This document shows, in pieces, positions 21,036-59,028 of a stretch of 64,000 nucleotides of DNA. Each line of letters begins with the position of its first letter. The first letter of the stretch is position 1. The notes beneath the pieces are model-generated. The model made no database searches and was not told the origin of the DNA. It saw only the letters and a program-made list of their open reading frames with translations. The position numbers and the translations under genes are program-made. The stretch is from a virus (lineage: Duplodnaviria > Caudoviricetes), in the IMG/VR virus record IMGVR_UViG_2510065010_000001, positions 96,001-160,000 of that record; one strand, written 5' to 3'.

Positions 21036-21044
21036 ATATCTTAG

Positions 21045-22326: not shown

Positions 22327-22353
22327 TTTAATCAACATTGGAAAGTCGATAAC

Positions 22354-22383
22354 AAGCCGGGGTTTTAACCCCGGTTTCTTTTT
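22354..22383. terminator. Terminator between convergent genes
   Basis: CCGGGGTT-tt-AACCCCGG inverted repeat followed by a T-rich run. Confidence 0.75.
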
Positions 22384-22609: not shown

Positions 22610-22675
22610 ATTGTTCTCCCATGTTTGAAATAATTTCGGGCACATGAACAGTTATTAAAACGTTAACCTACAAGT

Positions 22676-24400: not shown

Positions 24401-24403
24401 TAT

Positions 24404-40071: not shown

Positions 40072-40593
40072 ATGACTAAGTACACACCGATAATTATTAA
40101 ATTTATTTCACCTGTTGTTGTTGAAGGACAAGAGCTTCCTCAACAATATCTAGAACCGCTTAAGTTAGCCATCTATAGTCCACAGACGAAGTTGTTGAGT
40201 GCCGAACAAGCTTTGCCACTGCCAACAGTTGTTACGGTCCCATTTGAAAAAGAGCTTCGTATGAAGCTTTTACCTTCTGCTGTGTATAACCCACACGGTC
40301 GATATAAAGTGAAGGTATATCAGGGGAAAAATAATGTACCGCTCTATGAGATGGATTGGGTTGTTCCACAAATTCCTGAGCAGAAGTTTGTAGATGTTAC
40401 ACACTCGGAGACAGGAAGAGATTATCTCAATTTAGCCTTTTCAGAAATAATTTCTATTTCTCATGAAGGAGTCTGGGAAGTAGAAGACCAACATATTGTT
40501 TGGGTTCAAGACCGTCCCGTAATTGGGTCTTCCTATAGAGTTAAGTATCAGCCTGCTGTAACTTTAGGTGACCTGATAGTTTCTAATCCTTAA
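40072..40593 (+). CDS. Hypothetical beta-rich virion protein
   Basis: ORF following terL; Ig-like strand pattern. Confidence 0.55.
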   Translation: MTKYTPIIIKFISPVVVEGQELPQQYLEPLKLAIYSPQTKLLSAEQALPLPTVVTVPFEKELRMKLLPSAVYNPHGRYKVKVYQGKNNVPLYEMDWVVPQIPEQKFVDVTHSETGRDYLNLAFSEIISISHEGVWEVEDQHIVWVQDRPVIGSSYRVKYQPAVTLGDLIVSNP

Positions 40594-40660: not shown

Positions 40661-43600
40661 GTGTTAGGTTTTAGTCCGATCAGCGAGTTAATACCTGCTT
40701 CGTCTGTTCCAACACGAACAGAAGATTTTTTGCGTTCAGCGGAATCGGGCACATTAACAGCAACTATATACTCGACGCCGCATGACCAGAGTTTATTAGA
40801 AAATGCTGGAAGAGTTGTCATCAACCGTGGCAAGCAGTCAGGTAGTACTGATAAATTAGACAGGTTTATTGAGAGTTCTTACTTAAAAGGATATGATGTT
40901 CGCACTTTTTCATCCCCTTCTGCTGAGCAGAGACTTCACGCAAAAACTTACACAGCCATACTAAATCAGGTTGCTACCGCTCACGTTTCAACAGCTAACC
41001 TTTCTGAGACAGCTCTACAACAAACTCCTGGTTCTAGGCAAGAGCGTATAAGACAGTATTCAGGAAAAGTTTTTCAAGAAAACTTAGCATTTCAAACAAC
41101 TGACAGGTCTTTAGTTGCACAGATTTCTCATTTTCAATCTGCAGTCTCTCAGAACCGAGTTCCTAGCTCTACTCAGAATGTTGCTGTAGGTGGAACTGCC
41201 TCGCAAGCTACTGCACATAGAATATCTAGAGCAAAGCGTGGCGATCGCGTTATTCTTAGTGGACCTTATTTAGATGACCCACTAGTTGTTGCTTCTCTGC
41301 TGACTGCAAAAGCACAAGGGGCAGAGGTAACTGTTTTAAGTGCTAATCCAAACACTCGGTTTGAAACAGCAACTAGTGGTACAGGTGAACATCGCGAAGC
41401 AGTAAACCAACTGTCAGCAGCCGGAGTTAAGGTTCTTACACCAACAGAGGATGACCCATTATTAATCCATACGAAAGCACTGGCGATTGTTGGAGAATCA
41501 GAGGCACTATTTGCGCTCGGCTCTCATAACTTCACTAATGCGGCTAAGTCTAATCGATCAGTTGACCTTTTATTAATGTTGAATGACCCGCGTCTTGCAA
41601 AAGAACTTTATCACAACTTAAGCAATACGCAGGGTGTTCAACAACAGAAGAGGGAAGCGGTAGAGGTACCATCTTTACTTGAGCTAAAAATGACGCTTCA
41701 AGGAAGAGGTGGACTCTACCGCGTGTCCAGTTTAGGAGAACGTGGACCAAACTTATCAATGCCGTTTTATCCAACTCGCATGGATGGGGCATTCTTCAAA
41801 TTTTTTAATGATAAAAATACACCGTTTCCTAATCTTAATATCTATTCAAACTTATACGTATCGCGTACTGGTAGAACTGAGACGCCCGATGTTATTAAGC
41901 AATTAGATAGAGAAATCAGTGACCCAGGATTAGGATATTCGTTTAATAAACTTGTAGGTCAACCTATTTATGAGTCTGGATTTGGTATTATCGGCTCTGG
42001 TCTAAAATCTGTAGGGAAATTAATTGATTGGGCATTAGGGTTTGAAGCTCACAAAGAACGAGAAGACGAAAGAGATAACAAGAGTATAGGCGGCATTCGC
42101 AAATACTTCAGTTCTGCCTATCAGAGTAGTTATGGAAAAGAGTCTCAAGGACCTTTTGAAAGTATTTTTTCAAACTTTTACCAACTTGGAGCTGGAGCTG
42201 CTGCGACTCTATCTTTCTATGTAGGAGTGGACTTACCTCTCAAGTATTTTAAGGCAATGCTTGAGACTGATTATGCAGAAATGTTACTTCAGTTACCAGG
42301 TGATTCTCCAAAAAACTGGATGGCTAAAGGCGTATTGCAAGTAGCGCCAATGCTTCGAACAACGATGTTTGGTCCTGCAATTGGTGGTGCCTTAAATGAA
42401 GTAATTCAAGATACAACCACAACTCCCCAAAATTTTACTACTCGACTGTATGACAGGCTTTATAAACCTGGGAATGTTCTAAAAGACCCAACCCGTGTAG
42501 CAGTAACTCAAGAGGGAAAGCTTACTAGCATTCAGTTAGGTGATGAAGGGTTATACGCAGCTTCTCAAATGTTGAGGCGTTTTGACCAAGTGCGGTTTGA
42601 GCAATTAACTGCTCCAATTTTAGAAGCGATTAACCCATACACTGTTGATTCTATCCATTATCAGACATACAAACAATCCTTAACTCAGTTAACTGAAACT
42701 GTTGGAAAACCCACTGAGATTTTATTTCAACAACGGGCTGAAGACCCTAATGTTTATCGTCCTGTATTTAAGAACTTGGGTGTTGAGCGTGTTCGAGAAA
42801 TTGCTAAACGCTATGACGACCTCGCATCTTTGCTGCCAGCAAACCTAACGTACTGGGTACCTCCCCTTCGCAGGCTATTAAACCTGGACGAGTTTGACCC
42901 AATGCAGCACATGACTGTGCGTGACGTTATTTCGTTCGAAGATGCAGTACTTTGGACAGACCGTTTCTATAAGCACACTGTTGCTGTTTTACAAAACCCG
43001 GCTCAGAATGTGCGTCAAATTCTAAAAGCTTGGTCGGGAGAGGTGGAACTTTTAAGAACTGAACGAAAACTGATCAAGGAACTGTCAAAAGAGTTTGCAC
43101 CAACTCAGTTTAGCTTTCAGGCACAACACGCTGATGATGTTGCTGCTAATCTTAGTGCTCTTCATAGATATGGTGAAAACGTTTTAGACAGAACAAACCA
43201 GCAAGTTCAAACTATTTTGAATGACCAACGTGTTGTCAAATACAGTAAGCAGCTGGAAGCTCAACGCAAATTACTGGAGCAATCACCCTTTCGTTTATTA
43301 AACGAGAATGTTGTCGTATCTGAAAGTAAGTACAAACCTTTTGAGTCGGATGCTCGACACAAAGTGTCAAACATGCGACGTATTTTGGCGCGAGTTGGCA
43401 TAGCACTACTTGCGGATCGAATTGCTGACCAGTTTATATTTCAACCTCTAGGAGCTAATTTATTAACTCAAATTAAGGCACACCAAGAACTATCTACTCA
43501 AGAAGGTCAAGTTGCACGATTTCAATTTACAGGAGACTTATCTAAAGAGTTTGTTATTGCTAGTCAATTAGGCGCGGGTGCTGCAGTTGGATTTTTACTA

Positions 43601-46600
43601 CCCGATGCTTTGGATAAAGGTAATCGTCCACAATCCATAAGTACAGTTCTAGACCCACTAAGAGAATTTCAGAAAAGTCTTAAGTTAACTGAGAGGTCCA
43701 TATATAAGTCAGCTAGCGAAGAAATTCTTGAATCTGCTGACATTCAGGTGTCTCGTCAAGCTTTGGCATCCACAAATAAACGGTACAAAACTCTACAAGC
43801 AGAAATTCAAGGTCTGAAGTATCGACGAGTAGGTTTAAGATTCAATACTTCAGCAGCAATTGCTGCAGGACTTGTTGCTGGATTTGGACTCAAAACACTG
43901 TCAATGGGTGCTGCCTATGTTCTTAATTTAATAAATAACAACACATCTGGCATATCGCCTTCAGGCATGGATGCTTACTTTTCATCCACGTTTGAGCGTT
44001 TAACTCAAGAAGGCATTGCAAAAGCGGTAACTCGCGAGGACTATGTAAACTTAGCGATCGGTCATACTTTAGCCCAATCATTTTTGAACAGTGGAAAACA
44101 AAAGCAGAAAGTTTATACGGTTGCAACTCAGCTAACTTCACCATTCATACAAGTTCCTTTTTTATTAAAAGCAGATTCCGTAACAGGAAAAGCTAGCCTT
44201 TCAGTTGGTCTACAGTTAATGCCTCTGTTAGGTTCTGGTGTGACTCCTGCTTTACCATTTTCAATCCGGCTTAATAAAGATGAGCTGGACTCATTCGACA
44301 TTGGCGCTCAAGTACCAGGATTGTTTAGCTCTTTTCAAATTGCTAGTGTCATGGCTAGAGGAATGCTCTCTGCTCTGACATTTGGAAACAGTCTTATTTA
44401 CGAAAAAGAGTCTGTATATGAAAAAGGGATGGAGTTTGTAGGACTCAGTACCGCTCTTCTTTTAGGAGCTAACAAACTGTCTCAAGCAGATATTCGGTCA
44501 AAGCTTGCCAATAGAATTGGGTCTAACCACTCGTTATTAAAACAACTTGATGATGTTGATAAACACACTCGTGCTCTTAGACAAATAAGTAGAGGAGCCT
44601 TAGAGTTTTCGAATAAAACACTAAGGTTTATCTACTCTTTGCCCGTCGCGTTTGCAAGTAGTACTCTCCAAGCTGTTGCACCCATTATCAATCCACAGCT
44701 TGCTAATTTCAAAGTACCAAAAGGGTTACGTAAAGCAGCACCTTACTATCTTAGTTTGGTGATGGCGAATCTTATGGCTGACCCTGATGGTGGTTATGTG
44801 GGTGAGTCTTTCAAAGATCCTTTGACAAAAGTTGGGGGAGTTCTTGGAGCAGGTTTATTAACAGGTGCAGTTTTAGATCGGATGGGAGTGTTTGCAGATA
44901 CAGAGAGTTTAGCTGCTCAATTTCAGGCTAGTACTCGAAATCTTTCTGCAAAAGAGTATAGGCAATTAGTTCAAGACTGGTTACCAAAGGCAAAGGCTGG
45001 AACATCTGCTGCAGACTATATTGACGAATTGGTTGAAAACTTACGTACAGCTCCAGCTTCGTCGATTACTTCAAAAAGAGCAGTCTCACGTCAACTTTTA
45101 TCTACTATAAGTGCTCCATCACTTTGGGAGCAGGCGCATCGAATTTCAGAACTGAAATTTCTACACGAAGTGAGTGACGGAAGTTTAAAAACTCCAAATA
45201 AAATAGACCTTCCTTACAAGAATCTAAAATCTATTGGGGGAAGAATTGCTGCTGCTGCAATGGGGCTATTTGCCTTAAGAGGTACAGCATATGCGTTAGC
45301 TTCGATGATGCCAGAAGGGTTATTAAGTAATCTGTATAATACTCCTGTGTTAGGTGCAACTTTACGATTACTTTCAGGAGTTGAGCCAGAGCCAAAGTCT
45401 AGACAAGGGGTTTTAGCCGGAGAACGTCCGAGGGGCGCGTATGGTGTTCTTAATAAACTGGCTAAAACTTTGTCTTTTGGTTTGTTTGAATTACCAAAAG
45501 CGTCAGGGTTGTACAGTGATACTACAGACCCATTCTTAAACCTGATTGGACCTCTCGGAGCTACTTTTAAGTCTCATAAGACTAACTACTATATTCAGTA
45601 TGCTTCTTCATTTAGTGATATTTCTGCTACTGCCTATGATTTTGTCCGAGGTGGACTATCAACAGATTTACTAGCTAGAACCTACGGTTTGATGCATTTA
45701 GGTCAAGCTAAGTCGTTAAGTGAAGCATTAGCACAAATAAGAGGTGCAGCCCCACGTCAAAAGCTTGCGACTTACGAAACGATCACACCATATGAAATGG
45801 ATGCGGTTCAAAGTGCTGGTATTTCACGCGCATTGGGACTAAGACAATTTAGACTCCAACATGCTTCGAATCAGAGAGCGTCGGAATTACTGTTAGATTT
45901 CTTGAAAGAAGGCTATGCATTTGGCGAACTAGGGCATGACATTATGCCTGGTTATCAGATGCAATACAGAGGGTATAAACCCTTTGATTTTCTGGCGCAT
46001 AGTGACTTTATTTATCAAAAGTCAACTATAGAAGGAGGTGAACCACGACAACAAGACCCCTACGAAGCCTTTCTAAACTGGTTTCAAAAGTCACAGTGGA
46101 AGAGTCGAAAGTTAGCTGAAAGCTATAACCCTTTTGATTTAACAAATGGGCTGGGTTCGTTTTCTAACGCAGCCTGGTTAACAGCCCCTCTTGGGGTGTT
46201 ACTAACATTTGGTGCAATAAGTGCTGGCACAGAAATCACTGCAAAATTGTCTGCATATGTAGCACAAACAGAAATTAGTAAACTTACAGAAGCTTCTAAG
46301 TTAAGTCAGGGTAAGCAGCTAACAGCCCCCTATCGATACGTCTTCACTTCTGGGAACCTTCCTGGTTCTGGCAAATCTACCATTTTTCAGATAGACAAAC
46401 TCAATCGGTATAGCAATGTACATCGCTTACCGATAGACGTGAGTGAAATTATCGATGGGTCACCCTTTGAGTTAGTATCTGGTATCAATAAGTCTTACCA
46501 GAATTTGCACAACAGAGTTGGCAAGTACTTTACAGGTTCTTATCTAACCCAAGTTAAAAACCTTTTAACGCAGGTTGAAGGAGCAACAGATACTCAGAAA

Positions 46601-49600
46601 GCACAACTTACGCGAACGTTTAAGTCCACGGTGCAAAACGAGGTTACTAAAATTGTTCGTCAACAGATGCAACGGGTCGTACTCAAAGGAACAGACCTAA
46701 ACTTGTACAGAGCGTTTTACGGGGGTAGTAGTCGAAATGCGCCGTCTAATATCCGTGCCTACGTTGATGAAACCAAGTTGTTATTAGGACAAGCTTTAGA
46801 TGAAGTATTAGACGAAGTTAATAAACTAGGTGACCTTACAGCAGAATCTAGATACTTGCAGATCTTAAAATTAAACGCCCGGTTTGAGCAAAGTGAGGGG
46901 TTGCAGCGATTTTTAGGCAGATTGTCTGAACCGATTCGCGGCTCTTATGACTTGGATACAGACCGCCGCTCCTGGATGAAGTGGGTAGACCAGCAACTTT
47001 CAGGAGAAGATGCCAAGTCATCAGTACCGCAAGGAAAGGTTCAACGCTCTCTTGGAAACTTTGCATTTAATCAACCAGCGTTTACCCGTCCTTGGACTGA
47101 AGGGTTTCTTACTACAACTATAAAAGGTTTGAAAGGAGCCTCCATGCTGACAGGTGCTTGGGTTGCAACCGGGCGTTCCCTTTACGAAATATTTGAGTCG
47201 GGGGCAATTTTATTGGGGGGTTCTTCACAACCAATCTCAACGAGGTTAGCGGCTGGTGAACAGATGACATCGGGTGCTTTGTACTGGGGGATTTCAGCCG
47301 GGATTGCTGGTGTGGCAGCGATGATCGGTTTAGGACCTCTGGGAGCAATCGCTTTAGGCATCGGTTCTTTAATTGGACTAGATCATCTTAAAGCAACCAG
47401 TACGCCACTTCGTCAACTAGAGCAGGGGTTAGTTAAATCAGTTGGTAGATTCTTAGCACAGCCTGTTGAGTCAGCAGCTAAACTAGCTGATTCATTTGGT
47501 TTAGGTTCATTCGTCAGAACCGCTGGTAATGCGATCGCAACTCCAATAAGTTTCATCGCTTCAACCGTGTCTGCTCCATTTCGGTTTTTACTAGAGAACT
47601 TCGCAGCACCTTTTTTACAGGAACAGAATTTAAGTCTTTTCTCGGATTCACTTCCAGTACAAGTTGTAAAAACTTTGCTTTTACCTAGAAGTGTTTACAC
47701 TCAGTTCGACTCGTATGAACCACGCTCTTCAACCCTTGCTGGGCGGGAACCTTTCGTTGGTGGGAACATTGCCCTTCATTTAAAACGGCAACAGACTGCA
47801 AACATTCAAAACGCCATATCTGCAAACACATTTATAGATGAGACTACTGTTTATCCTTTGGCTATCGGTAGATTAAGCAGTTCTGGAGATAGGTTAACTG
47901 AGCAAAAGTATTTTGACTCATCAGCGGGTGGTCGAGTGCTTCAAGCTTTTGGTCCAGGTAACTATCGGATTAGTAATTCACTCCGGTTAGCCTTGCAGCG
48001 GCGACAAGCTATGTACCATGCAATGGTAACGGTTGCTGCTATAGCTAGACCACCTGAACCTGCTAACCTCTCAAGTTACAGCTTTTTACACGCTGCCTCT
48101 AGCACTTTATTAAAATTACAACTTGAAGATCTTAGCCAACCTATCACTATTAAATTAAGTCAGCAGCTTTCTGACTCATTCATCACACTTAAGGGACTTT
48201 ACAGTAAAGTCTCTGAAGCTTTATGGAAACCAGCAAACTGGTTACTAACTGTAGCAAACAGAGTGAAGTCTCGCTTATCTTATTTAGTTGAACCAATCAC
48301 AAAGTTCAAGTTAGACTTCTCGTTTCTAAAAATTAATAAACCTGATTTCAGGTTTAATGTACCCAAAGTAGGTGTACCTAACGCTCTTAAGTCAATCAGA
48401 CTACCTAGTGTAGATTTTTCACGACTTACTGATAAAATATTTGATTCTTTAGACTGGGCTTTAGACAAAATCTCAGATTTTAATCTTGGAAGTAAAGTCC
48501 CGTCTTACGATATTGGAAACTTTTTCCCTAACGGTTCTTTGCCATCGTTTAGTCGAGTTACCACAAAGTTATCTAGTACTTTTTCTTTAGTATCAGAAAA
48601 ACTTGACCCAGTTATTAATCGCTTGAAGGTTGCTTTTTCTAATATTAGTGCAGCTAATCTACCTAATTTTACAACTCCCGATGTTAACGTATCTGGCATA
48701 GCAGACCCTCTTGAGAAAGTAGTTAAAACTGCTACTCGAAATGTTCAGAAGGCTATACCAAGAATTGGATTTGCATTATCAGATGCTTTAGCGTCTGTTC
48801 CAAAAGGTTTGTCCCCTGGACTATTTTTTGGTGGGTTAGACTTTCTCTCAGCATTTTTAGCTGATGCGCGTTTGAAATCTTTGGATGAAGCAGACCCTTT
48901 TAAGGAGTTTCAGAGAGCTTATCAAGAAGCTGGAGCATCATTTGTTGGATTCACTGTTGGGGGTTTTGTTGCAAGTTTAACTCGAAATCCCTTACTGAGT
49001 TTCGGGGCTTCTATTCTAGGTGGAATATTAGGATTAAATATTGGAGATTCACTTGCAAGGTCTGCCTACAAAAATCAGGAAGAAAATCCAGTACTTACTT
49101 ATATTCAACAGTCGTTAACAACAGCTAGCGCAGTTACATTAATCCAATTACCAAATCTTATTAAAAGTCGCTCAGTAGCTCGGACTGCTCTTCTTAATAT
49201 CGGTTTGAGCTTTGCGACAGGTGGGCTTGGTCCGGTGACTCAACTTTCAGCTGTACATAGTTTTTCCAACTTTATTAAGTCATTTCAGGAACAGCCAGGT
49301 AAGTTATCTACCTGGATAGCCAGAACAAAAGAGTTGATTCAAGATACTGCTGAAGCGTTTAAGTTTTGGAGTAGTGGCGAGGTTTCAGGTCAATACGTTA
49401 AAGCTACGAGATCGTTAAGTCGAAATATTCTTTTGGGCCTTGGTACGGAAGCTGACATTCCGTTGACCAGTGTTCGTACCCGTTCTTCTGGTAGTCGTTT
49501 CTCGATTGAAGGCAGCTATCAAAGTAAATACCGCTCTATTCAACTGAGTAAGGCAACGGCAAGAGTTTTAGGAAGAGAAGCTGTTGGACGTAGGGTACGC

Positions 49601-52600
49601 CCCACTGATTTAGCTGAAGCTCGGTTCACACTGCTGCACGAAGCTTCTCATGCTTTAGATGACTTGGGTCAAAAACAGCGTTTAACTTTGGATGATTTAG
49701 ACCAGTTTATTTATTCACACGCCACAACTCGGTCAAATGTTCAAGAACTTAAGGACTTGCTAACTAGATCTAGTCAATCATCCACTGTCGCTTTGTATCA
49801 GAGGTTTTCCGGTGATGTAAACGCTAGCTTTTTGCAGCAGGTTTACAGTGATGAGTTATCTGCCAATGTTCGAGCGTTAGATGAATATATCAAGCGTTAT
49901 CCCGGTCAGGTAGATGACTTGCTAAAAGTCCTGCGTAGGACTAGTAATGCAGGCATCACAGACAAATATGAATCAATTCTAGAGTTAATAAAAGATCGAA
50001 CGAGTTTTGTTGATCCAGGTGTTCGATACAGACGTGCAGCTAGTAAAGCTTTTCGTGTAGAACGAGCAGTTTTAGGTGACGTACTAAATGCACCTAAAAG
50101 GTTTGTTAAAGGTTTCGTTTCTCATAAGTCTACTGCCCCACTTATTAATTTACGGTTTGCTGGACAAGCGCCAGATATGTCTGGGTGGAACTTAGCAGTC
50201 CAAACTTTTAACGCTGATTTTTCTGACCTTCCAAAACCTGTTGGAAAAATTCTTGGAGGGGTAGCAAAAGGAATTGGTTCTTACAGAATGCTTCGTTCCG
50301 GTTCAAGCATTCTTGCAGCTTCTCTGAGAAATGTAGCATTAACTACGCTTGGTTCACTTGAGAAAGTTATTAACCCTGCCTACGCTGCAACCTACAATCT
50401 AAACTCTAAAATGTCTGCTGGCGGGGTTAGTGCTATTGGATTGGTTGATTCTGTATTTATAGGAGTTGATTTATTTCAAGGTATTCAGTCCAACGCTGAC
50501 TATGCTGCTCTTAATAAAAAGCTAAGACAGAACCCGGCACAAGTGCAGGCATTTAAGCGAGAGATTATTAAGCTACGAAATAGTCAATTAGGAGGATTTC
50601 TGGGAGCAACACTAGGCGCTGCTGCTGGTTTGATTTCGAAAAATCCTCTCTATGGATTTATCCTGGGAGGAGCTGCCGGACTTGTTGCACCTTTGGTTGG
50701 ATTCTTTGGACTCTCAGCTTATTTAGGTCAACAGGATTTAGAGTATGCAGCTAACGGTCATGCTCTATATGACCCAATGCAGTCACCTTCAATTTACTTA
50801 CGAGTTAATAAACAATTGCTAGCAGAGAAGGAAGCAACCACAAGAGTGCTGCGTCCTTTAAGGTCTAGTATTAAAAAGTTTGTTTCTCAAACAATGCGGT
50901 TAGTTGGACGAGCTGTGTTTCAGGCAGCTAAGCTTGGCTATAATGCTTTGTCGCATCTGACTGCACTGGGGGTTGCGGCTACCACAACAACGGCTGCATT
51001 TTTAGGCTCTTCTCTGGCACTTGCAATTCCAGTCTTAGGAAAGGCTTACAACTTACTAGAGTTTGGCGCAAAAGGATTTGGACGATTTGCCTACTCTCTT
51101 GGAAAACCGTTATTTCCAGTGGTTGCATACCCTATTCGGCAACTGGGTAAACTCACTAGAAAAGGTATAGCTTTAAGCGCGACGGTTGTTAACAAAGTGA
51201 CAGAATTTACTACCAATCAGGTAGCTAAACTAGGCAGATTCAGTCAGCAAATTCTTTCAAATGTTTGGTCGTCTGGAGTGTATGTTGCAAGTCAAGCTTT
51301 GCGTATGGCTTCAAAAGCTGAGAGCTACTTAGGAGAAGCTGCCGCTAAGTTATATCAATATATTCCTCAATTTTCTTACTGGTCGGATGACCTGTTTCTT
51401 CCAGCCTTAAAATTTGCAGGTAGTACTGCACTGAAAACTGCACAACTCTCGATGGCTGCTGGTCGGGCTGTATTAAGTTCTTCATTTAGCCTGGTTAAAT
51501 CAACAGTCAAAGCTTTTACACAGACTGTTAGGTTTGCTTCCGAGAATTCTTACAAGCTAGCCAAACCTATTATTAATGCATCAATCCAAGGATTACAGCT
51601 AGGAGTATCAGCAGCTTTCGAAATTGCTCGTCCGATAGCTAGCTTAACTAATAATCTTTTACGCTCTTCTTTTTACTTAGGTTCTAGTGTTCTTAAAGCT
51701 GGCGTTCATACTGTCTCGCTTCTTGCTCGAACAGGTTTTAACGTTTTAAGTAAAGTAACACAAGCACTGGCACAGTCAGCTGGATCTGAACTGCTACGAA
51801 TCGGGGGTGGTATCTATTCAGAGTTAGCTACGTTCGCAAAGTATATACCTGGTTATCTAAAAACAAAAGGTAGTTTGCTTCGTCAGCTTGGGCGGTCTGC
51901 GTCATCTCTAGTTAAAGCTACAGTCAATATAGGTTCAGCTATAGCTCTATCTGCGGGTAAAGCTTTAGTAAGAGGCTCTAGGTTTGCAGCATCGGTAATA
52001 GGTTCTTCTGCACAAGCACTATGGCAAACCACGCAACGACTTACAGGTTTAAGGTCAGTTTTTCCATTTTTAACAAATTTGGCAATAGGTGCAACAAACC
52101 TGCTCTACAAGACGTTAGGAAAACCAGCGATCGCTGCGACATCCCTTGCCTTAAAACTAGGTGGTAGAGTAATTACCACTTCAGCAAAAGCTGCATTCCA
52201 CTTATTAAAAACTACTCATTTGCCGAAAGGGTTTGTCTCCAAGACTATTTCTGCACTTAGAGATATTGGAGAGTATGCTTCTATAACCACGATGAGTGCC
52301 GCTCGGTCTTTTATTAAAACTACAGGTGCCTATCTTCGGGAATCATCTAAACTTTTAAGCAATCTGGGTACTCTTACAGGACAGACAGCTAAATTCTTAT
52401 TTGACTCTTCTGTAGCAACAACCAAAGCTGTAGCAACGTTTGGAAAGCACATAATTAACGGTACGGGTCAAGTAACGTCTTACGCTCTTAGATCAACACT
52501 TGCCGCCGCCCGGTTTGCTAAGTCAACTGTTAAAAGTGCCGGAAAGTTATTAGCGTTTGCAGGTAGTGTTACTAACCAACTGGTTGACCGAGGTATAAGA

Positions 52601-55600
52601 CAACTTGTTAGATACACACCAGGTCTTGCCAAAACCATATTAGCTCACGGATATAAAGAGACTTTCTTAAACGTTCTCAGCCCTGCTCTTGATCTTGCCA
52701 CAGTTGGTGGAGGAGTCTTTAAGGCAGGACAACTTAATGCTTACAGCTCTCTTTCAGAAGTAGAAGAAGCTTACATCCAAGCAGGTGCAGGGCGTGGCAG
52801 TTTAGTAGGCTCTGTTTTTGGACTCTTTGCAATGGGTCCGTTAGGCGATGTGGCTGGGTCTTTGTTAGGACAGTTTATTGGGTCTGAGGCTGCTAAAGAA
52901 CGTGCTCGACTTCGTTACGAAGCTAGAGATTACGGTATCGTCCCTATTCTGGAAGATTTCGTCGAACCTTTAACGAGAGATACCGTGCTGGCTGGATATG
53001 TAGGGAAACAAGTAGGTAAGATGGGCAGTGCTGCTGTGCAGTCTTACCTACAAAATTCCTTAGCAAAGATAGCCAGTGGAAAAGCTAATAAGCTCGATCG
53101 CATGGTTACAGCAGCGTCAGCTGCTTACCGACAAGGATTCCGCTCCCAAGTAGCACAAGCAACTGGTCGATTTAGTAGAGTGCTGGGTCATGCGCCAGGT
53201 GCAGCCTCTATTGGAAAACTAGTTGGTGGAACGTCTAAAGTTGTCACAAAAACTGCTGGAAAGATTCTTCAAATTCTCGGACCTGCAATAGACGTTACTC
53301 GGATAGGAGCTGGATATGTGCAATCTCAATCGGCACGAACTGAGGCTGAGTACCAAGTTTCTGTTCGAAGAACATCTGGTGGATTAGGTTCTATCGCAGG
53401 AGGTTTAATAGGGGGTGCTTTAGGAGGACCGATCGGTGCAGTCGCAGGTAGTCTCTTAGGTGATTTCGTTCTTGATAAAGTTGGTGAGAATCTGGCACAA
53501 GAAGCATACATGCGTAATGTGAGCGCTGGAACAATCACTACAGGGCAAATTGCAGGGGGTGTAATTGGTGCTGGAGTAGGGTTATTAGCTGGGGGGTTAT
53601 TAGTCGGTGCTGGATTAGTGGCAGCAGTGGCGACAGCTCCTATTCTTTTAGCAGCAGCAGGTATTGGTCTTTTGGTAGGTGCTGTAGCAGGCGGATACGC
53701 TATGCTCACTGGTAAGAAAAAAGACGAATCAAAAACTCGCCTGGTTCAAGTAGCTCAACGTCGCCGCGCAAGATGGAATACACCTGATGCTCTAAATCAA
53801 CCCATTAAAAAGCAAAGCATTATTAAACAAACTGATAATGAAATACTCGATGTAACCAAACGTTCTAAAGAGCGCTTAGCAATTGCACAGTCTTATTTGA
53901 GTCCTACTCAGCAACCTGAGTCAGCTACTAACGTAATGACTCAAGCTAAAACATCTAACCAGACACAGAGAGACCAGCAACGTCAATGGTGGTCTGGTGT
54001 TTATGAAGGAGTTGTTGCAGTCGGACGAAAAAGTATGGAGTTGGTTGAAGGAGTGCGATCGTACATCAAACGTACCTACTCTGATTTTCAAACGATTCTC
54101 TCTAAAGTGTCAGAGTTTAAGGCTTCACTGTTTAATAAATCCCAAAAAACGTCTGCTAAAGAATCTTTACCAACTACACAAGTTGAAGTAAGCGACCCTA
54201 CTGATACGTCTACGGTTACTGGTACACCAGTAACGGTTAAGGGAGGTGTGAAACTTAACGAGGCAGATGCTTACCGACTTGCAGCACTTGCAATCATGGA
54301 AGCTCCAACTCGGATGGGTCGTTTGGATGTTGCCCAAGCGGTTTTCAATAGAATAAACGCACCTAAAGTAGGAGCCGCTTCTTATGGTTCTAGTGTTACA
54401 GCAGTAGTGTTTGCGTCTGGACAGTTCGAACCGTATTTTGGTGTAAGTGCTTCTGAAATTAAGAATAGGTCTGATGCCGTCTCTATTCTTAAAAGAAAAC
54501 GAGGGATGAGCAGTGCCCAAGCGAACCAGTTATTAAACCAGTTTTTTGCAGATGTGGCTGACCCCGCAAAGATGGCTCAAGCCAGAAAACATGTTGGAGG
54601 ACGTACCGACTTTAAAGGTACAACCATGTATAGCAACATGGTTAAAGGTGAGGACAAGCTACGAACTTATGGAGAGAATTTCTTCCACATTGGTTCGGGT
54701 CAAAGCTATAAACAGCTTGCAAAATTGGAACAGCTCGGACCTTCTGTAATTGTTAAAGAAGGACAAGAGTTGCCTAAATCGGTTGCAGGTTCCTCTCCTC
54801 CACAAAATTTATCAGGAAGATTATCTGGCAAGGTAGTTCCGTTTAAGGGCATCATCGTTACTTCTGCAGTAGATGCTTCAGGTGAACCAGGTCTTGACTA
54901 TGTTGTTGAGTCAGGTAAGCGTGGTGCTCAGTTTGGTTCCCTAACTTCTGGACAAGTTATTGAAGTAGTAGCTAATCAAAACTGGGAGTCACATTTAGAG
55001 CGAGGAGATACCCGTAGAGGTTATGGTAATCGGGTAATTGTTCGTAGTAAAGATTCAAAAACTGGAGAATTCGTAGACATCCTTTACGCCCACTTAGACC
55101 GTGTGAACGTGAAGAAAGGTCAGAGTGTTGTGGTAGGTAGCGTTCTAGGTACTCAAGGTAGAACTGGTTCGACAACAGGTGCTCACGTTTCAGTTGACTT
55201 TTATGCAAAAGATGCAAATCACGCTTCAAGAGCATCCATAGCGATGCGCGACCGTTTAGCGCGTGAATTATCTAGAGGTGCCCCAAATCTTAATAAACAA
55301 GTGAAACAAACACAGCAAGCAGCCGCAACTCAGGCACCTGCTACTGTACCTACAACGGCTTCTACTATTTCTAAGTCTGCACCTACTGTTTCAACTGAAC
55401 AAAATGGTCAAATTGTAACAACCTCAAAGCTGAATACTACAAGACAATCAGCTACTACAAAGTCCGTTGATAAGATTGCATCTAGTACGCCAATTCGTAT
55501 TCCCTCTGGTTTGAATGCTAGAGGAAAAAAAATGGCGCAATACTTAGCAAATCCAAATGTTCGAGCGGTTTTAGACACGATCGCTTATGCAGAAGGGTTG

Positions 55601-56515
55601 TGGGGTAAACCCGGTGGTGGCTATGACTTAGGCTTTAACTACCGCAAGATTTCTAATATGTCGAAGCATCCGTTTCACGGAAACGAGAGAACACCAGGGG
55701 GTGGTAGCTCTGCCAGTGGACGTTATCAAGCTATGGGACACACATGGGCAGAAGCAGCAAGGAATTATGGACTGAAAGATTTTAGTCCTGCATCACAAGA
55801 TGTTTTTGCTGTCGCAAAACTAGCAGACCGAGGTATTTTAGAGCGTATTGCAGCTGGTAAGATTAACGATCCATTTGTGCGCCGTCAGTTAGGTTACGAA
55901 TGGGCATCGTTTGAAGGTAATCCGTATGGACAAGGAACCTCAATGGGTAGTTGGAGTAAAGCGATTCCTTTCTTTCACAAACGAGTAAAAGCTTACCGTA
56001 ACCCTATTGGTCCAGAGGAGATGGAAAAGGTAGCAGAATCGTTTACACCTCCGTCTGAAAGAGTTACACCTACTGAACAATCTGTCCCAGCTTCAGCACC
56101 AACTGAAACTATAAAACCTGCTCATGTTGTTTCACCTTCAAACCAAAAGCGACGTAGGAAGAACCTACATTCATCTGTGCACACGCCTGCTGCAGATGTG
56201 AATAAACTGAATCAAGCGGCAGTTGTTCAGCCTATGAATCTTGGCGTTGTTGAAAAGATGCTGGCAGTTGTTAACAACGTATCGGAGCAGGCAAAAAAAT
56301 CAATCAAGCCCCCAAGCAATAAACAAATTCAGGTTGCTACTGCACAGTTACCTCAATCAGTAGCCTCACTCGATACAACATGTAATTCTCAAAAGCATGA
56401 TTGCCTGCAAGCAGTTGTTGCAGGCAATCATATAGACTTAAGCTCTTTAACAGGATACCTAAAAGATTGGGTATCTGTTACGGGGATGACATCACCTTTA
56501 GAGTTTGCAAGTTAA
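40661..56515 (+). CDS. Giant (5284 aa) multidomain tape-measure/ejection protein: two PLD-like motifs, zincin motif, membrane modules, SleB-like hydrolase, M23-like domain, lambda-type lysozyme
   Basis: LHAK..STANL (H at 40937); IHTK..GSHNF (41468); LLHEASH (49637); MEA..VAQAVFNR..GQFEP (54299); GYGN..YAHL..QGRTG.TTGAH (about 54880-55200); LDTIAYAEG..SASGRYQ..TW..DFSPASQD (55592); many GxxxG hydrophobic helices. Confidence 0.8.
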   Translation: MLGFSPISELIPASSVPTRTEDFLRSAESGTLTATIYSTPHDQSLLENAGRVVINRGKQSGSTDKLDRFIESSYLKGYDVRTFSSPSAEQRLHAKTYTAILNQVATAHVSTANLSETALQQTPGSRQERIRQYSGKVFQENLAFQTTDRSLVAQISHFQSAVSQNRVPSSTQNVAVGGTASQATAHRISRAKRGDRVILSGPYLDDPLVVASLLTAKAQGAEVTVLSANPNTRFETATSGTGEHREAVNQLSAAGVKVLTPTEDDPLLIHTKALAIVGESEALFALGSHNFTNAAKSNRSVDLLLMLNDPRLAKELYHNLSNTQGVQQQKREAVEVPSLLELKMTLQGRGGLYRVSSLGERGPNLSMPFYPTRMDGAFFKFFNDKNTPFPNLNIYSNLYVSRTGRTETPDVIKQLDREISDPGLGYSFNKLVGQPIYESGFGIIGSGLKSVGKLIDWALGFEAHKEREDERDNKSIGGIRKYFSSAYQSSYGKESQGPFESIFSNFYQLGAGAAATLSFYVGVDLPLKYFKAMLETDYAEMLLQLPGDSPKNWMAKGVLQVAPMLRTTMFGPAIGGALNEVIQDTTTTPQNFTTRLYDRLYKPGNVLKDPTRVAVTQEGKLTSIQLGDEGLYAASQMLRRFDQVRFEQLTAPILEAINPYTVDSIHYQTYKQSLTQLTETVGKPTEILFQQRAEDPNVYRPVFKNLGVERVREIAKRYDDLASLLPANLTYWVPPLRRLLNLDEFDPMQHMTVRDVISFEDAVLWTDRFYKHTVAVLQNPAQNVRQILKAWSGEVELLRTERKLIKELSKEFAPTQFSFQAQHADDVAANLSALHRYGENVLDRTNQQVQTILNDQRVVKYSKQLEAQRKLLEQSPFRLLNENVVVSESKYKPFESDARHKVSNMRRILARVGIALLADRIADQFIFQPLGANLLTQIKAHQELSTQEGQVARFQFTGDLSKEFVIASQLGAGAAVGFLLPDALDKGNRPQSISTVLDPLREFQKSLKLTERSIYKSASEEILESADIQVSRQALASTNKRYKTLQAEIQGLKYRRVGLRFNTSAAIAAGLVAGFGLKTLSMGAAYVLNLINNNTSGISPSGMDAYFSSTFERLTQEGIAKAVTREDYVNLAIGHTLAQSFLNSGKQKQKVYTVATQLTSPFIQVPFLLKADSVTGKASLSVGLQLMPLLGSGVTPALPFSIRLNKDELDSFDIGAQVPGLFSSFQIASVMARGMLSALTFGNSLIYEKESVYEKGMEFVGLSTALLLGANKLSQADIRSKLANRIGSNHSLLKQLDDVDKHTRALRQISRGALEFSNKTLRFIYSLPVAFASSTLQAVAPIINPQLANFKVPKGLRKAAPYYLSLVMANLMADPDGGYVGESFKDPLTKVGGVLGAGLLTGAVLDRMGVFADTESLAAQFQASTRNLSAKEYRQLVQDWLPKAKAGTSAADYIDELVENLRTAPASSITSKRAVSRQLLSTISAPSLWEQAHRISELKFLHEVSDGSLKTPNKIDLPYKNLKSIGGRIAAAAMGLFALRGTAYALASMMPEGLLSNLYNTPVLGATLRLLSGVEPEPKSRQGVLAGERPRGAYGVLNKLAKTLSFGLFELPKASGLYSDTTDPFLNLIGPLGATFKSHKTNYYIQYASSFSDISATAYDFVRGGLSTDLLARTYGLMHLGQAKSLSEALAQIRGAAPRQKLATYETITPYEMDAVQSAGISRALGLRQFRLQHASNQRASELLLDFLKEGYAFGELGHDIMPGYQMQYRGYKPFDFLAHSDFIYQKSTIEGGEPRQQDPYEAFLNWFQKSQWKSRKLAESYNPFDLTNGLGSFSNAAWLTAPLGVLLTFGAISAGTEITAKLSAYVAQTEISKLTEASKLSQGKQLTAPYRYVFTSGNLPGSGKSTIFQIDKLNRYSNVHRLPIDVSEIIDGSPFELVSGINKSYQNLHNRVGKYFTGSYLTQVKNLLTQVEGATDTQKAQLTRTFKSTVQNEVTKIVRQQMQRVVLKGTDLNLYRAFYGGSSRNAPSNIRAYVDETKLLLGQALDEVLDEVNKLGDLTAESRYLQILKLNARFEQSEGLQRFLGRLSEPIRGSYDLDTDRRSWMKWVDQQLSGEDAKSSVPQGKVQRSLGNFAFNQPAFTRPWTEGFLTTTIKGLKGASMLTGAWVATGRSLYEIFESGAILLGGSSQPISTRLAAGEQMTSGALYWGISAGIAGVAAMIGLGPLGAIALGIGSLIGLDHLKATSTPLRQLEQGLVKSVGRFLAQPVESAAKLADSFGLGSFVRTAGNAIATPISFIASTVSAPFRFLLENFAAPFLQEQNLSLFSDSLPVQVVKTLLLPRSVYTQFDSYEPRSSTLAGREPFVGGNIALHLKRQQTANIQNAISANTFIDETTVYPLAIGRLSSSGDRLTEQKYFDSSAGGRVLQAFGPGNYRISNSLRLALQRRQAMYHAMVTVAAIARPPEPANLSSYSFLHAASSTLLKLQLEDLSQPITIKLSQQLSDSFITLKGLYSKVSEALWKPANWLLTVANRVKSRLSYLVEPITKFKLDFSFLKINKPDFRFNVPKVGVPNALKSIRLPSVDFSRLTDKIFDSLDWALDKISDFNLGSKVPSYDIGNFFPNGSLPSFSRVTTKLSSTFSLVSEKLDPVINRLKVAFSNISAANLPNFTTPDVNVSGIADPLEKVVKTATRNVQKAIPRIGFALSDALASVPKGLSPGLFFGGLDFLSAFLADARLKSLDEADPFKEFQRAYQEAGASFVGFTVGGFVASLTRNPLLSFGASILGGILGLNIGDSLARSAYKNQEENPVLTYIQQSLTTASAVTLIQLPNLIKSRSVARTALLNIGLSFATGGLGPVTQLSAVHSFSNFIKSFQEQPGKLSTWIARTKELIQDTAEAFKFWSSGEVSGQYVKATRSLSRNILLGLGTEADIPLTSVRTRSSGSRFSIEGSYQSKYRSIQLSKATARVLGREAVGRRVRPTDLAEARFTLLHEASHALDDLGQKQRLTLDDLDQFIYSHATTRSNVQELKDLLTRSSQSSTVALYQRFSGDVNASFLQQVYSDELSANVRALDEYIKRYPGQVDDLLKVLRRTSNAGITDKYESILELIKDRTSFVDPGVRYRRAASKAFRVERAVLGDVLNAPKRFVKGFVSHKSTAPLINLRFAGQAPDMSGWNLAVQTFNADFSDLPKPVGKILGGVAKGIGSYRMLRSGSSILAASLRNVALTTLGSLEKVINPAYAATYNLNSKMSAGGVSAIGLVDSVFIGVDLFQGIQSNADYAALNKKLRQNPAQVQAFKREIIKLRNSQLGGFLGATLGAAAGLISKNPLYGFILGGAAGLVAPLVGFFGLSAYLGQQDLEYAANGHALYDPMQSPSIYLRVNKQLLAEKEATTRVLRPLRSSIKKFVSQTMRLVGRAVFQAAKLGYNALSHLTALGVAATTTTAAFLGSSLALAIPVLGKAYNLLEFGAKGFGRFAYSLGKPLFPVVAYPIRQLGKLTRKGIALSATVVNKVTEFTTNQVAKLGRFSQQILSNVWSSGVYVASQALRMASKAESYLGEAAAKLYQYIPQFSYWSDDLFLPALKFAGSTALKTAQLSMAAGRAVLSSSFSLVKSTVKAFTQTVRFASENSYKLAKPIINASIQGLQLGVSAAFEIARPIASLTNNLLRSSFYLGSSVLKAGVHTVSLLARTGFNVLSKVTQALAQSAGSELLRIGGGIYSELATFAKYIPGYLKTKGSLLRQLGRSASSLVKATVNIGSAIALSAGKALVRGSRFAASVIGSSAQALWQTTQRLTGLRSVFPFLTNLAIGATNLLYKTLGKPAIAATSLALKLGGRVITTSAKAAFHLLKTTHLPKGFVSKTISALRDIGEYASITTMSAARSFIKTTGAYLRESSKLLSNLGTLTGQTAKFLFDSSVATTKAVATFGKHIINGTGQVTSYALRSTLAAARFAKSTVKSAGKLLAFAGSVTNQLVDRGIRQLVRYTPGLAKTILAHGYKETFLNVLSPALDLATVGGGVFKAGQLNAYSSLSEVEEAYIQAGAGRGSLVGSVFGLFAMGPLGDVAGSLLGQFIGSEAAKERARLRYEARDYGIVPILEDFVEPLTRDTVLAGYVGKQVGKMGSAAVQSYLQNSLAKIASGKANKLDRMVTAASAAYRQGFRSQVAQATGRFSRVLGHAPGAASIGKLVGGTSKVVTKTAGKILQILGPAIDVTRIGAGYVQSQSARTEAEYQVSVRRTSGGLGSIAGGLIGGALGGPIGAVAGSLLGDFVLDKVGENLAQEAYMRNVSAGTITTGQIAGGVIGAGVGLLAGGLLVGAGLVAAVATAPILLAAAGIGLLVGAVAGGYAMLTGKKKDESKTRLVQVAQRRRARWNTPDALNQPIKKQSIIKQTDNEILDVTKRSKERLAIAQSYLSPTQQPESATNVMTQAKTSNQTQRDQQRQWWSGVYEGVVAVGRKSMELVEGVRSYIKRTYSDFQTILSKVSEFKASLFNKSQKTSAKESLPTTQVEVSDPTDTSTVTGTPVTVKGGVKLNEADAYRLAALAIMEAPTRMGRLDVAQAVFNRINAPKVGAASYGSSVTAVVFASGQFEPYFGVSASEIKNRSDAVSILKRKRGMSSAQANQLLNQFFADVADPAKMAQARKHVGGRTDFKGTTMYSNMVKGEDKLRTYGENFFHIGSGQSYKQLAKLEQLGPSVIVKEGQELPKSVAGSSPPQNLSGRLSGKVVPFKGIIVTSAVDASGEPGLDYVVESGKRGAQFGSLTSGQVIEVVANQNWESHLERGDTRRGYGNRVIVRSKDSKTGEFVDILYAHLDRVNVKKGQSVVVGSVLGTQGRTGSTTGAHVSVDFYAKDANHASRASIAMRDRLARELSRGAPNLNKQVKQTQQAAATQAPATVPTTASTISKSAPTVSTEQNGQIVTTSKLNTTRQSATTKSVDKIASSTPIRIPSGLNARGKKMAQYLANPNVRAVLDTIAYAEGLWGKPGGGYDLGFNYRKISNMSKHPFHGNERTPGGGSSASGRYQAMGHTWAEAARNYGLKDFSPASQDVFAVAKLADRGILERIAAGKINDPFVRRQLGYEWASFEGNPYGQGTSMGSWSKAIPFFHKRVKAYRNPIGPEEMEKVAESFTPPSERVTPTEQSVPASAPTETIKPAHVVSPSNQKRRRKNLHSSVHTPAADVNKLNQAAVVQPMNLGVVEKMLAVVNNVSEQAKKSIKPPSNKQIQVATAQLPQSVASLDTTCNSQKHDCLQAVVAGNHIDLSSLTGYLKDWVSVTGMTSPLEFAS

Positions 56516-57109: not shown

Positions 57110-58072
57110 ATGCGTTTATCCTTATCAAAAGGTTCAAGTGGGGTTATTAATCTCCCTAAAAACTTGAAAGTGAATGCACAAAGACTTCAGGGTGTTTTAG
57201 TAACAGTCCCGAACACCGATGATGAAGTTTTTGTGTGGAGGAATAATACCTGGTTACCAGACAAGTTTTTGCCCAGTATAGGGATAGAAGGACTTACTCT
57301 ATCTAATAATGCGATCGACGCTGACCACGATTTGAATTTTAGTGCGGGTGCTGCCCTAACTACGATTGGACAAAGAAGAGTCGCAAGACTCGATACAACT
57401 TTAGTAAAACAATTAGATAGTTCTTGGGAAGCTGGCAACAACAGCGGTGGTTTATTTAATGATGTAAACCTAGAAGCACCCAATACTTACCATTGCTTTC
57501 TTTTAGTTAATAACTCTACAGGAGAAGTGGATGCTGGTTTTGATGATAATCTAAATGCAGAAAATCGCCCAGCCGGATGGTCTGCTAGACGAGTTGGTTC
57601 CATTTTATATAGAGGTTCCAGCATTGTTGCGTTTAATCAGTTTGGGTGGTTTTTTGAGCATAAAACTCCCATAGTTGATTTGAATGGTGTTGAAATAGCC
57701 ACAACTAGTACTCTATATACGTTAAGTGTACCAACGGGATTACCTGTGGAGGCTTCCTTTATTTTTGCTGGTGGTTTAGCTGGTGATATTGAAGGCGGGG
57801 ACGTTAGTATTTCTGTGCAATCACCGGACCAAAACACGCAGACTCCAAATTTGGGTCCACACGTAGGTTCCTTTCGGGGAACTTATGGCAGCTTTTTTGT
57901 GTTTACTCCAGTAGACCTCACTGACACAACTACGGTTTTATCGTTACTCAGGCACACAAATGCAGAAGCAAAGATAAAGATGATTAGAACCGGAGAATAC
58001 TTAGGGAGTGCTTGGCAGACCACTTTAATAACTACTGGGTGGTATGACCATGCTTTGCTAAGGGGATACTGA
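57110..58072 (+). CDS. Tail fibre/receptor-binding protein, paralog 1
   Basis: EGLTLSNN..KQLD..W.AG...GG..TYH.FL..VDAGFD..P.GW..RR.GSI..F.Q.G..GWYD, shared with the next two genes. Confidence 0.7.
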   Translation: MRLSLSKGSSGVINLPKNLKVNAQRLQGVLVTVPNTDDEVFVWRNNTWLPDKFLPSIGIEGLTLSNNAIDADHDLNFSAGAALTTIGQRRVARLDTTLVKQLDSSWEAGNNSGGLFNDVNLEAPNTYHCFLLVNNSTGEVDAGFDDNLNAENRPAGWSARRVGSILYRGSSIVAFNQFGWFFEHKTPIVDLNGVEIATTSTLYTLSVPTGLPVEASFIFAGGLAGDIEGGDVSISVQSPDQNTQTPNLGPHVGSFRGTYGSFFVFTPVDLTDTTTVLSLLRHTNAEAKIKMIRTGEYLGSAWQTTLITTGWYDHALLRGY

Positions 58073-59028
58073 TGTACAGCAACCTGAACCCTTACGTAAT
58101 AAACGTATACTCTCAACGTCCGTTATGGAACGCTGCTTCTTTTCGTGGTCTGCATGTTAGAAGAACACAGGAGGCAACTACAAATGCACTCTTCTGGACA
58201 GGAACTCAATTTGAACCGCTGCCTTCTTTGAAAGCAACTCATCTCGAAGGTTTAACAATCGTAAACAACTCAACTAACCCAAACACGCATATCGATGTTA
58301 CACCCGGTTATTGTGTCACAACGGTTGGTGGTCGGTACGCTGTTCAAGCAGTTAGCTCGTTAACTAAAAACTTGGAAGCGACGTGGGCACCAGGAAACAA
58401 TAACGGTGGTCGTTTCAACTCTGTTTCTTTGACAGACAGCACTTACCATTTTTTCCTAATTTTCAACCCTCAAACAAAAGCGATCGATGCCGGGTTTGAT
58501 AGTGCAGTTAGCGGCACAAACATTCCTACAGGTTGGGTTGGTAGACGGTTAGGCTCAATCAGAAGGGTATCTGGTGCAATTGAGCTGTTTAATCAAATTG
58601 GTGCTTACTTTCAACGAAAGACTGTTGCTGTTGACTTAAACTCCATTGCTATACCAACTACGGGAGCTGATTATACGTTGAGTATTCCGGTTGGAAAATC
58701 CATGTTGGCGCATGGAAATTTTTCCCCTGGTGCAACCGCAATAAATGAAGCAATGGCACTAGTAGTCCATAGTCCTAATAAAACTAGTTTTGTGCCTAAC
58801 TCCAGTCCGGCTACTGCAGACTTTAAGGGTACATCTGGATCGTGGTTGTTTTACGATACCGTTGTTGACTACGCTCTGGTTTCACCAAACACAGAAGTTT
58901 GGGTACCAACTAACGGTAATGCTCAAGCTCATTTTCGTAGGACGGGAAACTATGCAGCTGACGTAAACCAGCAGTCAACTTTTCAGACTCTTGGGTGGTA
59001 TGATTTATCCCTACTGGAGGGTTTATGA
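58072..59028 (+). CDS. Tail fibre/receptor-binding protein, paralog 2
   Basis: Same motif series; TGATG coupling. Confidence 0.7.
   Translation: MYSNLNPYVINVYSQRPLWNAASFRGLHVRRTQEATTNALFWTGTQFEPLPSLKATHLEGLTIVNNSTNPNTHIDVTPGYCVTTVGGRYAVQAVSSLTKNLEATWAPGNNNGGRFNSVSLTDSTYHFFLIFNPQTKAIDAGFDSAVSGTNIPTGWVGRRLGSIRRVSGAIELFNQIGAYFQRKTVAVDLNSIAIPTTGADYTLSIPVGKSMLAHGNFSPGATAINEAMALVVHSPNKTSFVPNSSPATADFKGTSGSWLFYDTVVDYALVSPNTEVWVPTNGNAQAHFRRTGNYAADVNQQSTFQTLGWYDLSLLEGL

Follow-up and report, generated by a model that had tools for sequence, protein, structure and literature searches.

We examined a 64,000-nucleotide (nt) window of DNA, positions 714,804-778,803 of a 5.53-Mb single-scaffold genome, that encodes a protein of 5,284 amino acids (aa; residue numbers below refer to this protein). 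The gene is real, intact, and non-chimeric. The "phage" to which it belongs is a ~205-kb Ma-LMM01-like myophage island in a 5.5-Mb cyanobacterial chromosome. Sequence comparisons place the protein in a rare family of giant phage proteins that are almost free of cysteine and carry exchangeable nuclease heads and wall hydrolases. In the reading we favour, on which we stand at about an even balance, it is a polyvalent protein of a Ma-LMM01-like contractile-tailed cyanophage, found here in a chromosomal island, that would be carried in the virion and injected into the host. How contractile-tailed cyanophages cross the thick envelope of cyanobacteria, and what cargo they deliver besides DNA, is poorly known. 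The isolated model phage Ma-LMM01 carries a 2,898-aa member of the family, and the family is thus testable. An earlier reading made from the letters of the window (the sequence-only reading) had described a virion protein with nuclease-like, protease-like, membrane, and wall-degrading modules, and had interpreted it as a processed polyprotein or ejection machine. Its observation is confirmed in part and its interpretation is supported in part.

Integrity and relatives of the giant gene

40661-56515, + strand: giant open reading frame (ORF), 5,284 aa, with a GTG start and two cysteines, both within the last 45 residues

The ORF listing and its translation give a single uninterrupted frame. This frame opens at 40628, and the N-terminus of the giant protein aligns with the N-termini of its homologues; an ATG at 40659 lies nearby but is out of frame. 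The worry of the sequence-only reading that the ORF might be an assembly chimera was not borne out. Full-length collinear homologues (53%, 53%, 37%, and 25% identity) in independent assemblies rule a chimera out, and a second assembly holds a 99%-identical C-terminal piece of 3,294 aa with no gaps and no frameshift. No runs of N occur at scaffold positions 208,723-1,657,102. A hot-spring metagenome DNA run contained 7% of the sequence words and yielded six contigs (151-213 nt, at least 99% identity) that map on the giant gene. They span only window positions 43409-46165, too little to bridge the ORF, and suggest a low-depth presence of the phage or its host in that hot spring. No RNA run containing the sequence was listed, a result without bearing on expression.

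The island is a stretch of low GC content (~41%, versus 47.5% genome-wide) that runs from ~606 kb to ~812-816 kb on the scaffold. It is free of N and continuous on both sides with host sequence. Eight Photo_RC genes mark the genome as cyanobacterial, which agrees with the host supposed earlier. Window genes include a Mu-type portal, a protease/scaffold, an E-type capsid, a sheath, a DUF2345/VgrG-like protein, gp25, Baseplate_J, and the large terminase. The island may represent a jumbo-size, integrated relative of a type of phage for which only a lytic life is known, and its place in a chromosome bears on the debated lysogeny of Ma-LMM01-type phages.

We scanned 1.84 billion representative proteins with HMMER, using aa 500-1699 (E<=1e-3), and found 40 relatives; 35 of these are 3,200-7,866 aa long and the others are fragment-like. 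No relative of aa 330-2500 shorter than 2,906 aa was found. A word-index search returned five proteins, four of which are full-length collinear homologues of 4,614-5,260 aa; the fifth is the 99%-identical C-terminal piece. Contigs bearing relatives measure 192, 195, and 217 kb, and the gene order recurs on the 195-kb one, an IMG/VR viral contig (locus L002). One relative, encoded in a Leptolyngbya genome, goes by no other name at NCBI than "thermonuclease family protein". Neither megablast of 20 kb nor tblastn of the core (E<=1e-5) gave a match among phages. Searches for related loci also returned none, both with the giant protein alone (viral and genome contigs) and with the family alignment (genome contigs), and the core profile matched 0 of 400 other sampled genomes of the phylum (E<=1e-5). 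PHROG labels for the family are phrog_90 and phrog_6700 ("endolysin") and phrog_4070 ("tail length tape measure protein"; M23 part, E 9.5e-5), and JGI names the relatives "muramidase (phage lysozyme)".

The closest named relative is the Ma-LMM01 (AB231700.1) protein MAP_120 (BAF36211.1), annotated as a "hypothetical protein". The core profile matches it at three collinear places (E 2.9e-7, 5.4e-5, and 1.3e-5), and tblastn gives E 1.3e-4. MAP_120 is half the size of the giant protein, and the similarity is too weak for tblastn of the core at E<=1e-5. Gene order is alike in Ma-LMM01, with a small ORF, the terminase, a small ORF, and the giant gene, followed by replication genes on the opposite strand. 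The Ma-LMM01 terminase is 34-36% identical to that of the island over its full length, and phrog_6700, which has 2,898 positions, matches the M23 part of the giant protein. Microcoleus phage My-WqHQDG (OR578706.1) encodes a 4,151-aa "hypothetical protein" (WOL31340.1) with collinear matches to the phospholipase D (PLD)-like part (E 3e-7) and the start of the core (E 6e-4); the core profile matches it at one place (E 2.8e-5). Some 1,000 aa separate its PLD part from the N-terminus, the two giant proteins show very little similarity overall, and the My-WqHQDG genome is metagenome-derived and partial. The giant protein has the features of MAP_120-like giants, namely the core (aa ~360-2500), a length of at least ~3,000 aa, and an adjoining terminase. 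In the accessible portions of the literature (including PMC9927357 and PMC3426561, and apart from the original Ma-LMM01 genome paper), neither a MAP_120-type gene nor a tape measure of Ma-LMM01-type phages is discussed.

Cysteine is nearly absent from the family. We counted 21 cysteines in the 196,321 aa of 41 relatives, 28 of which have none at all; the content of 32 neighbouring ORFs is 0.46%. This avoidance may have evolved for transit through a narrow channel or for activity outside the cytoplasm.

Modules of the giant protein

40661-41650, + strand: PLD/Nuc-like nuclease head, aa 1-330; second half-site by hidden Markov model (HMM), first (H93xK95) by motif
41651-48160, + strand: family core, aa 331-2500; no known domain; model of aa 334-1333 compact
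47264-47380, + strand: charge-free hydrophobic hairpin, aa 2202-2240, from hydropathy
49451-50050, + strand: HExxH island (HEASH at aa 2993, nt 49637-49651); candidate zincin, by motif only
50645-51040, + strand: two hydrophobic glycine-rich transmembrane-like segments, aa 3329-3356 and 3433-3460, from hydropathy
50861-52660, + strand: basic acid-poor tract, aa 3401-4000; poorly conserved
52661-53740, + strand: glycine-zipper/transmembrane-like module, aa 4001-4360 (including 4238-4267 and 4297-4351); conserved in 11 of 41 relatives
54221-54730, + strand: SleB/CwlJ-like (Hydrolase_2) module, below the Pfam cut-off; present in 8 of 41 relatives
54923-55210, + strand: M23 peptidase domain, aa 4755-4850, with EPGLD for HxxxD and HVS for HxH
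55556-55936, + strand: lambda-R-type lysozyme/lytic transglycosylase domain, aa 4966-5092, with AYAEG kept
56258-56512, + strand: C-terminal tail with the motif W..(V/I/F)TG, common to closer relatives

A survey of domain architectures among the homologues, proposed with the sequence-only reading, shows that heads are swapped and hydrolases are shuffled, with the core retained. Of the five enzyme-like modules in the giant protein, three (PLD, M23, and lysozyme) exceed their thresholds. Pfam PLDc_2 matches aa 186-318 of the nuclease head with E 1.2e-13 and 51.4 bits (cut-off 27). A Pfam scan of a 2,000-aa piece missed this match, so scans of very long pieces under-report. Two PLD-like HxK motifs had been noticed in the head from the letters. 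The second is upheld by PLDc_2, and its half-site (H270xK272...G287S288xN290) is invariant in all five aligned proteins. The first (H93xK95...T111xN113) is likewise invariant in all five, but HMM and BLASTP support is lacking: aa 1-175 match no PLD family in Pfam, and the first and second halves of the head show no similarity to each other. We treat the first half-site as a motif-only candidate. The Asp of HxKxxxxD is missing from both half-sites. The PDB gives a weak match to Nuc (1byr; E 0.095 with the single sequence and 0.011 with a profile).

The PLD head is common to 16 of the 41 relatives. Others carry Endonuclease_NS (P0011, E 2.8e-41), SNase (P0013, P0020, and P0025), or Exo_endo_phos (P0018) at the head position, and a set of 12 relatives has SNase in one and PLDc_2 in six. 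The head is exchanged among four unrelated nuclease folds: PLD, SNase, Endonuclease_NS, and endonuclease/exonuclease/phosphatase (EEP). These are sugar-non-specific nuclease families that are typically secreted or periplasmic. Because non-homologous enzymes of one activity displace it, the PLD head is predicted to be a nuclease rather than a phospholipase, and head swapping is the best available argument for this predicted role.

Along the protein, conservation peaks in aa 1-2500 and falls to its minimum in aa 2500-2700 and 3400-4000. AlphaFold2, given an alignment of 22 sequences, models aa 334-1333 as a compact helical body with small sheets (predicted local distance difference test [pLDDT] 76.1; predicted template modelling score 0.63). 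Judged from this model, the region is no extended ruler, and its fold is unrecognised. Foldseek of the core model against PDB and BFVD found nothing at E<=1e-3, with every template modelling score below 0.1, and VIA-align found nothing above background (best Z 7.7, on a terminal helical hairpin). A 1,000-residue model may mask domain-level matches, and the null fold search decides for neither a new nor a known fold. The best ESM Atlas score for aa 330-2200 is 0.81, which is a lead only. The earlier doubt that the whole protein could serve as a full-length ruler gains from the model, in which aa 334-1333 form a compact body and not one long helix.

The lambda-lysozyme-like domain named in the sequence-only reading stands. 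It matches solved lambda lysozyme (1am7/3d3d) at E 5e-12 with the single sequence (residues 7-135 of 158) and at E 1.6e-24 with a profile. It keeps the AYAEG motif with the catalytic glutamate of lambda-type lysozyme, and the domain resembles endolysins in 588 phage records. The M23 assignment is sound at the level of the family, with a PF01551 match above the cut-off (E 4.3e-10; 40.1 versus 28.7 bits) and profile matches to many M23 structures (E down to 5e-24), but not at the level of the canonical zinc ligands, two of three of which appear to be replaced. HVS is aligned to HLH of ShyA in both the giant protein and P0003, and EPGLD is placed by the alignment at the position of HxxxD; P0004 and P0005 keep HxH. 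With two zinc ligands replaced, the M23 domain of the giant protein is probably inactive or altered. The only proteins of deposited phages to which this M23 subtype (54728-55270) finds a match are hypothetical ones from two Synechococcus podoviruses, S-CBP2 and S-CBP4 (6 records, E 5e-7 to 1e-5).

The SleB-like domain described earlier survives as a similarity to PF07486 (E 3.7e-5; profile positions 5-59 of 100) that falls short of the Pfam cut-off (24.7 versus 27 bits); no SleB structure is among the PDB matches listed for the profile at E<=5. At least one of the three hydrolase modules occurs in 20 of the 41 relatives, invariably near the C-end. The C-terminal wall hydrolases are shuffled cassettes, because their content varies among relatives: besides the three modules of the giant protein itself, VanY occurs in 2 of 12 relatives and NlpC/P60 in P0006.

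Between the core and the hydrolases, the HExxH domain of the earlier description persists as a motif, which is followed ~70 aa downstream by DExSANVRA and is conserved in four of five aligned proteins. It is matched by neither a Pfam family nor a zincin fold. By regular expression, HExxH lies mid-protein in 15 of 41 relatives and is absent from 26. The AlphaFold2 model of the region is poor (pLDDT 52.8); with this poor model Foldseek returned nothing at E<=1e-3, and the best VIA match (Z 6.6) falls on a low-confidence helix outside the motif. The hydrophobic segments and glycine zippers seen earlier are borne out. By hydropathy, the giant protein has six charge-free stretches of 20-55 aa, and its 29 glycine-zipper-like motifs are about three times the number in shuffled sequences (9.6 +/- 3.2), with 16 of them in aa 4001-4500. 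A basic amphipathic repeat region had also been reported. Its basic character is evident in aa 3401-4000 (K+R 11-13%, D+E 2-3%), but self-BLASTP of the tract at E<=0.01 found no internal repeat.

Possible roles and known systems

In the favoured reading, the giant protein would be synthesised late and packed with or next to the DNA. At infection it would exit via the tail in an unfolded or extended form, which would explain the avoidance of cysteine. The C-terminal cassette would cut peptidoglycan, with the lambda-type transglycosylase and the SleB-like module as cutters and the M23 module probably acting only as a binding or altered-metal domain. Glycine-zipper and hydrophobic segments would insert in the cytoplasmic membrane, and the HExxH island may divide the chain into functional fragments. 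The N-terminal sugar-non-specific nuclease head would arrive on the host side and attack host or competitor nucleic acid. The sequence-only reading had suggested that the phage injects a toolkit of giant proteins, this one together with another, ORF1. The swapping of heads and shuffling of hydrolases across the family, the avoidance of cysteine (also in ORF1), and the linkage to the terminase support this idea.

Phage polyvalent proteins are the closest general model. As described in the portions of PMC5512222 (Iyer, Burroughs, Anand, de Souza, and Aravind 2017) available to us, they combine a zincin (MPTase), lysozyme, and PF07486 domains, occur in late-gene contexts, and are proposed to be injected with the DNA. 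There, the lysozyme and PF07486 domains are proposed to breach peptidoglycan on entry and the zincin to process the chain (PMC5512222). The giant protein likewise joins several unrelated effector domains on one polypeptide in a late/packaging gene context. It differs in that the zincin is a motif-only candidate here and that the protein is dominated by a conserved core of 2,000 aa whose fold is unrecognised. Injection of the giant protein, if it takes place, would carry the polyvalent-protein idea over to cyanophages, where such proteins are reported to be scarce, and enrich it with the logic of a nuclease "warhead" and with a large conserved core of no known fold.

Several points weigh against injection as a polyvalent protein. 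The virion location is a prediction, with no virion proteome found, and the transmembrane-like segments were called from hydropathy only. The zincin, which is the hub domain of polyvalent proteins in the sections of PMC5512222 at hand, is a motif here and is absent by regular expression from most relatives. The same sections call polyvalent proteins scarce in cyanobacteria and, supplementary lists excepted, do not name PLD/HKD, M23, NlpC, or transmembrane parts for them (PMC5512222). PHROGs and JGI call relatives of the giant protein "endolysin" or "muramidase". Finally, neither the tail module nor the genome as a whole yielded a tape measure gene, which leaves room for a role in the tail lumen.

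The closest solved piece is in the Anabaena myophage A-1(L). Its hub gp15 (PDB 8KEA) has a peptidase domain that lyses Anabaena cells and also a lysozyme domain, according to the part of PMC10966104 that we could consult. The family M23 profile matches the C-terminal peptidase domain of this hub at E 5.2e-24. In A-1(L), it is the 899-aa baseplate hub that carries the hydrolases, and the tape measure is a protein of its own with 689 aa (same part of PMC10966104). In contrast, the hub and spike candidates of the island are without hydrolase domains, and the hydrolases sit on the giant protein.

In T5 pb2 and phiKZ gp181, which are tape measure or tail-lumen proteins, hydrophobic or glycine-rich segments precede a C-terminal wall hydrolase. 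The giant protein differs from this type in gene position, compact 2,000-aa core, nuclease head, and size. From the known systems compared here it differs by an exchangeable nuclease head, a large conserved core, membrane segments, cysteine avoidance, and cyanobacterial hosts.

The main alternative, possible though rather unlikely, is that the giant protein is or includes the tail tape measure. Its C-terminal third (basic helical tract, glycine zippers, wall hydrolases, and conserved C-terminal tail) would lie in the tube with the C-end at the spike, and the N-terminal 3,000 aa would either be cleaved off or serve as cargo at the neck or head. The genome gave no match to the tape measure families PF10145, TIGR02675, and PF20155. 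Those ORFs that lie between the tube and gp25 (168, 574, 678, 395, 623, and 221 aa; 20217-29492) match no tape measure family and, by eye, are not long helical Ala/Gly-rich proteins. Tape measures are very diverse, and the three failed HMMs are weak evidence for the absence of a separate one. The phrog_4070 match to the M23 part, the massing of glycine-zipper motifs just ahead of the hydrolases, and the W..TG tail kept in closer relatives would all fit a tape measure. So would the binding of the C-terminal helices of the A-1(L) tape measure to the N-terminal helices of the spike, as given in the consulted part of PMC10966104.

Other evidence speaks against a tape measure. The giant gene follows the terminase, outside the tail module, in the window and in four of five other loci. 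Its unusual place had been remarked on earlier, and indeed it lies after the baseplate genes and the terminase and not between tube and baseplate. The compact model of aa 334-1333 and the range of family lengths (2,898-7,866 aa), with enzyme cassettes gained and lost, are unfit for a ruler. Conservation is weakest in the basic tract, and the sole PDB tape-measure match (9ki1_g, E 1.3) is not significant.

It is also conceivable, but unlikely, that the giant protein forms one injection device from head to tail tip in a phage with no separate tape measure. The C-terminal third would then act as tube ruler and membrane channel with the hydrolases at the tip, and the 3,000-aa N-terminal part, comprising the nuclease head and a core of new fold, would be stored at the neck or head, pass down the tube at infection, and deliver the exchangeable nuclease warhead ahead of the DNA. 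If this were true, the exchange of nuclease heads would parallel, in a phage, that of polymorphic-toxin tips.

Very unlikely, in our judgement, is a late, cell-bound lysis or takeover factor outside the virion, a membrane-anchored giant "exolysin" that would cut the wall from within and turn its nuclease on host DNA. The "endolysin" labels (phrog_90 and phrog_6700), the JGI name, and the resemblance of the lambda-type lysozyme domain to phage endolysins point that way, and the hydrophobic segments could serve as a membrane anchor. However, these labels stem from a single lysozyme or M23 domain. The conserved 2,000-aa core, the swapped secretion-type nuclease heads, and a 40-fold depletion of cysteine are unlike endolysins. 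No holin-like neighbour was noted apart from a lone match at chance level (E 0.051) in a ~320-aa ORF downstream of the giant gene.

Least credible of all is a decaying or domesticated remnant, either a non-functional ORF in a dead prophage or part of a host-co-opted island: the island does lie in a chromosome, with no tyrosine integrase within its ~205 kb and no direct repeats of at least 16 bp found at its edges, but the 15.9-kb frame is free of stops, the 3,294-aa copy in another assembly is free of frameshifts at 99% identity, collinear conservation extends to 25% identity, and head, tail, terminase, and replication genes are intact nearby.

Genes near the giant gene

38343-40061, + strand: large terminase subunit; homologue directly upstream of the giant gene in four of five other loci
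40072-40593, + strand: 173-aa ORF directly upstream of the giant gene; conserved in loci L002 (36% identity) and L005 (28%)

A terminase homologue lies directly upstream of the giant gene in L002, L005, Ma-LMM01, and My-WqHQDG, but not in L004. The 173-aa ORF is conserved in its two loci even where the terminase is inverted. It is a possible partner or chaperone of the giant protein. Three tandem ~320-aa paralogues follow the giant gene (57110-59990), and L002 has one homologue (42% identity) in the same place; the chance-level holin match mentioned above falls in one of these paralogues.

ORF1, the product of a second giant gene (3,311 aa), occupies window positions 3-3857, with the full gene at scaffold positions 708725-718660, just upstream of the portal. 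It has 0 cysteines in 3,311 aa. No Pfam family matches it, aa 1-600 are without a PDB match, and BLASTP finds no similarity to the giant family. By eye, an HxK...GTxN-like string is present near aa 210-235.

Among the tail ORFs, those of 574, 678, and 623 aa gave no meaningful sequence match in the PDB. The 678-aa ORF (24404-26440) seems, by eye, to begin with an N-terminal helix followed by a gpV/spike-type OB-fold start, and the 168-aa ORF (21820-22326) is acidic and coiled-coil-like. A tRNA-Arg(TCT) lies inside the island (scaffold 687401-687473), and My-WqHQDG too has a tRNA-Arg near its giant gene. The ribonucleotide reductase at window positions 60810-63998 (- strand; full ORF to ~65381) carries an intein with a LAGLIDADG homing endonuclease, in which Pfam identifies LAGLIDADG_3, Hom_end, and Intein_splicing.

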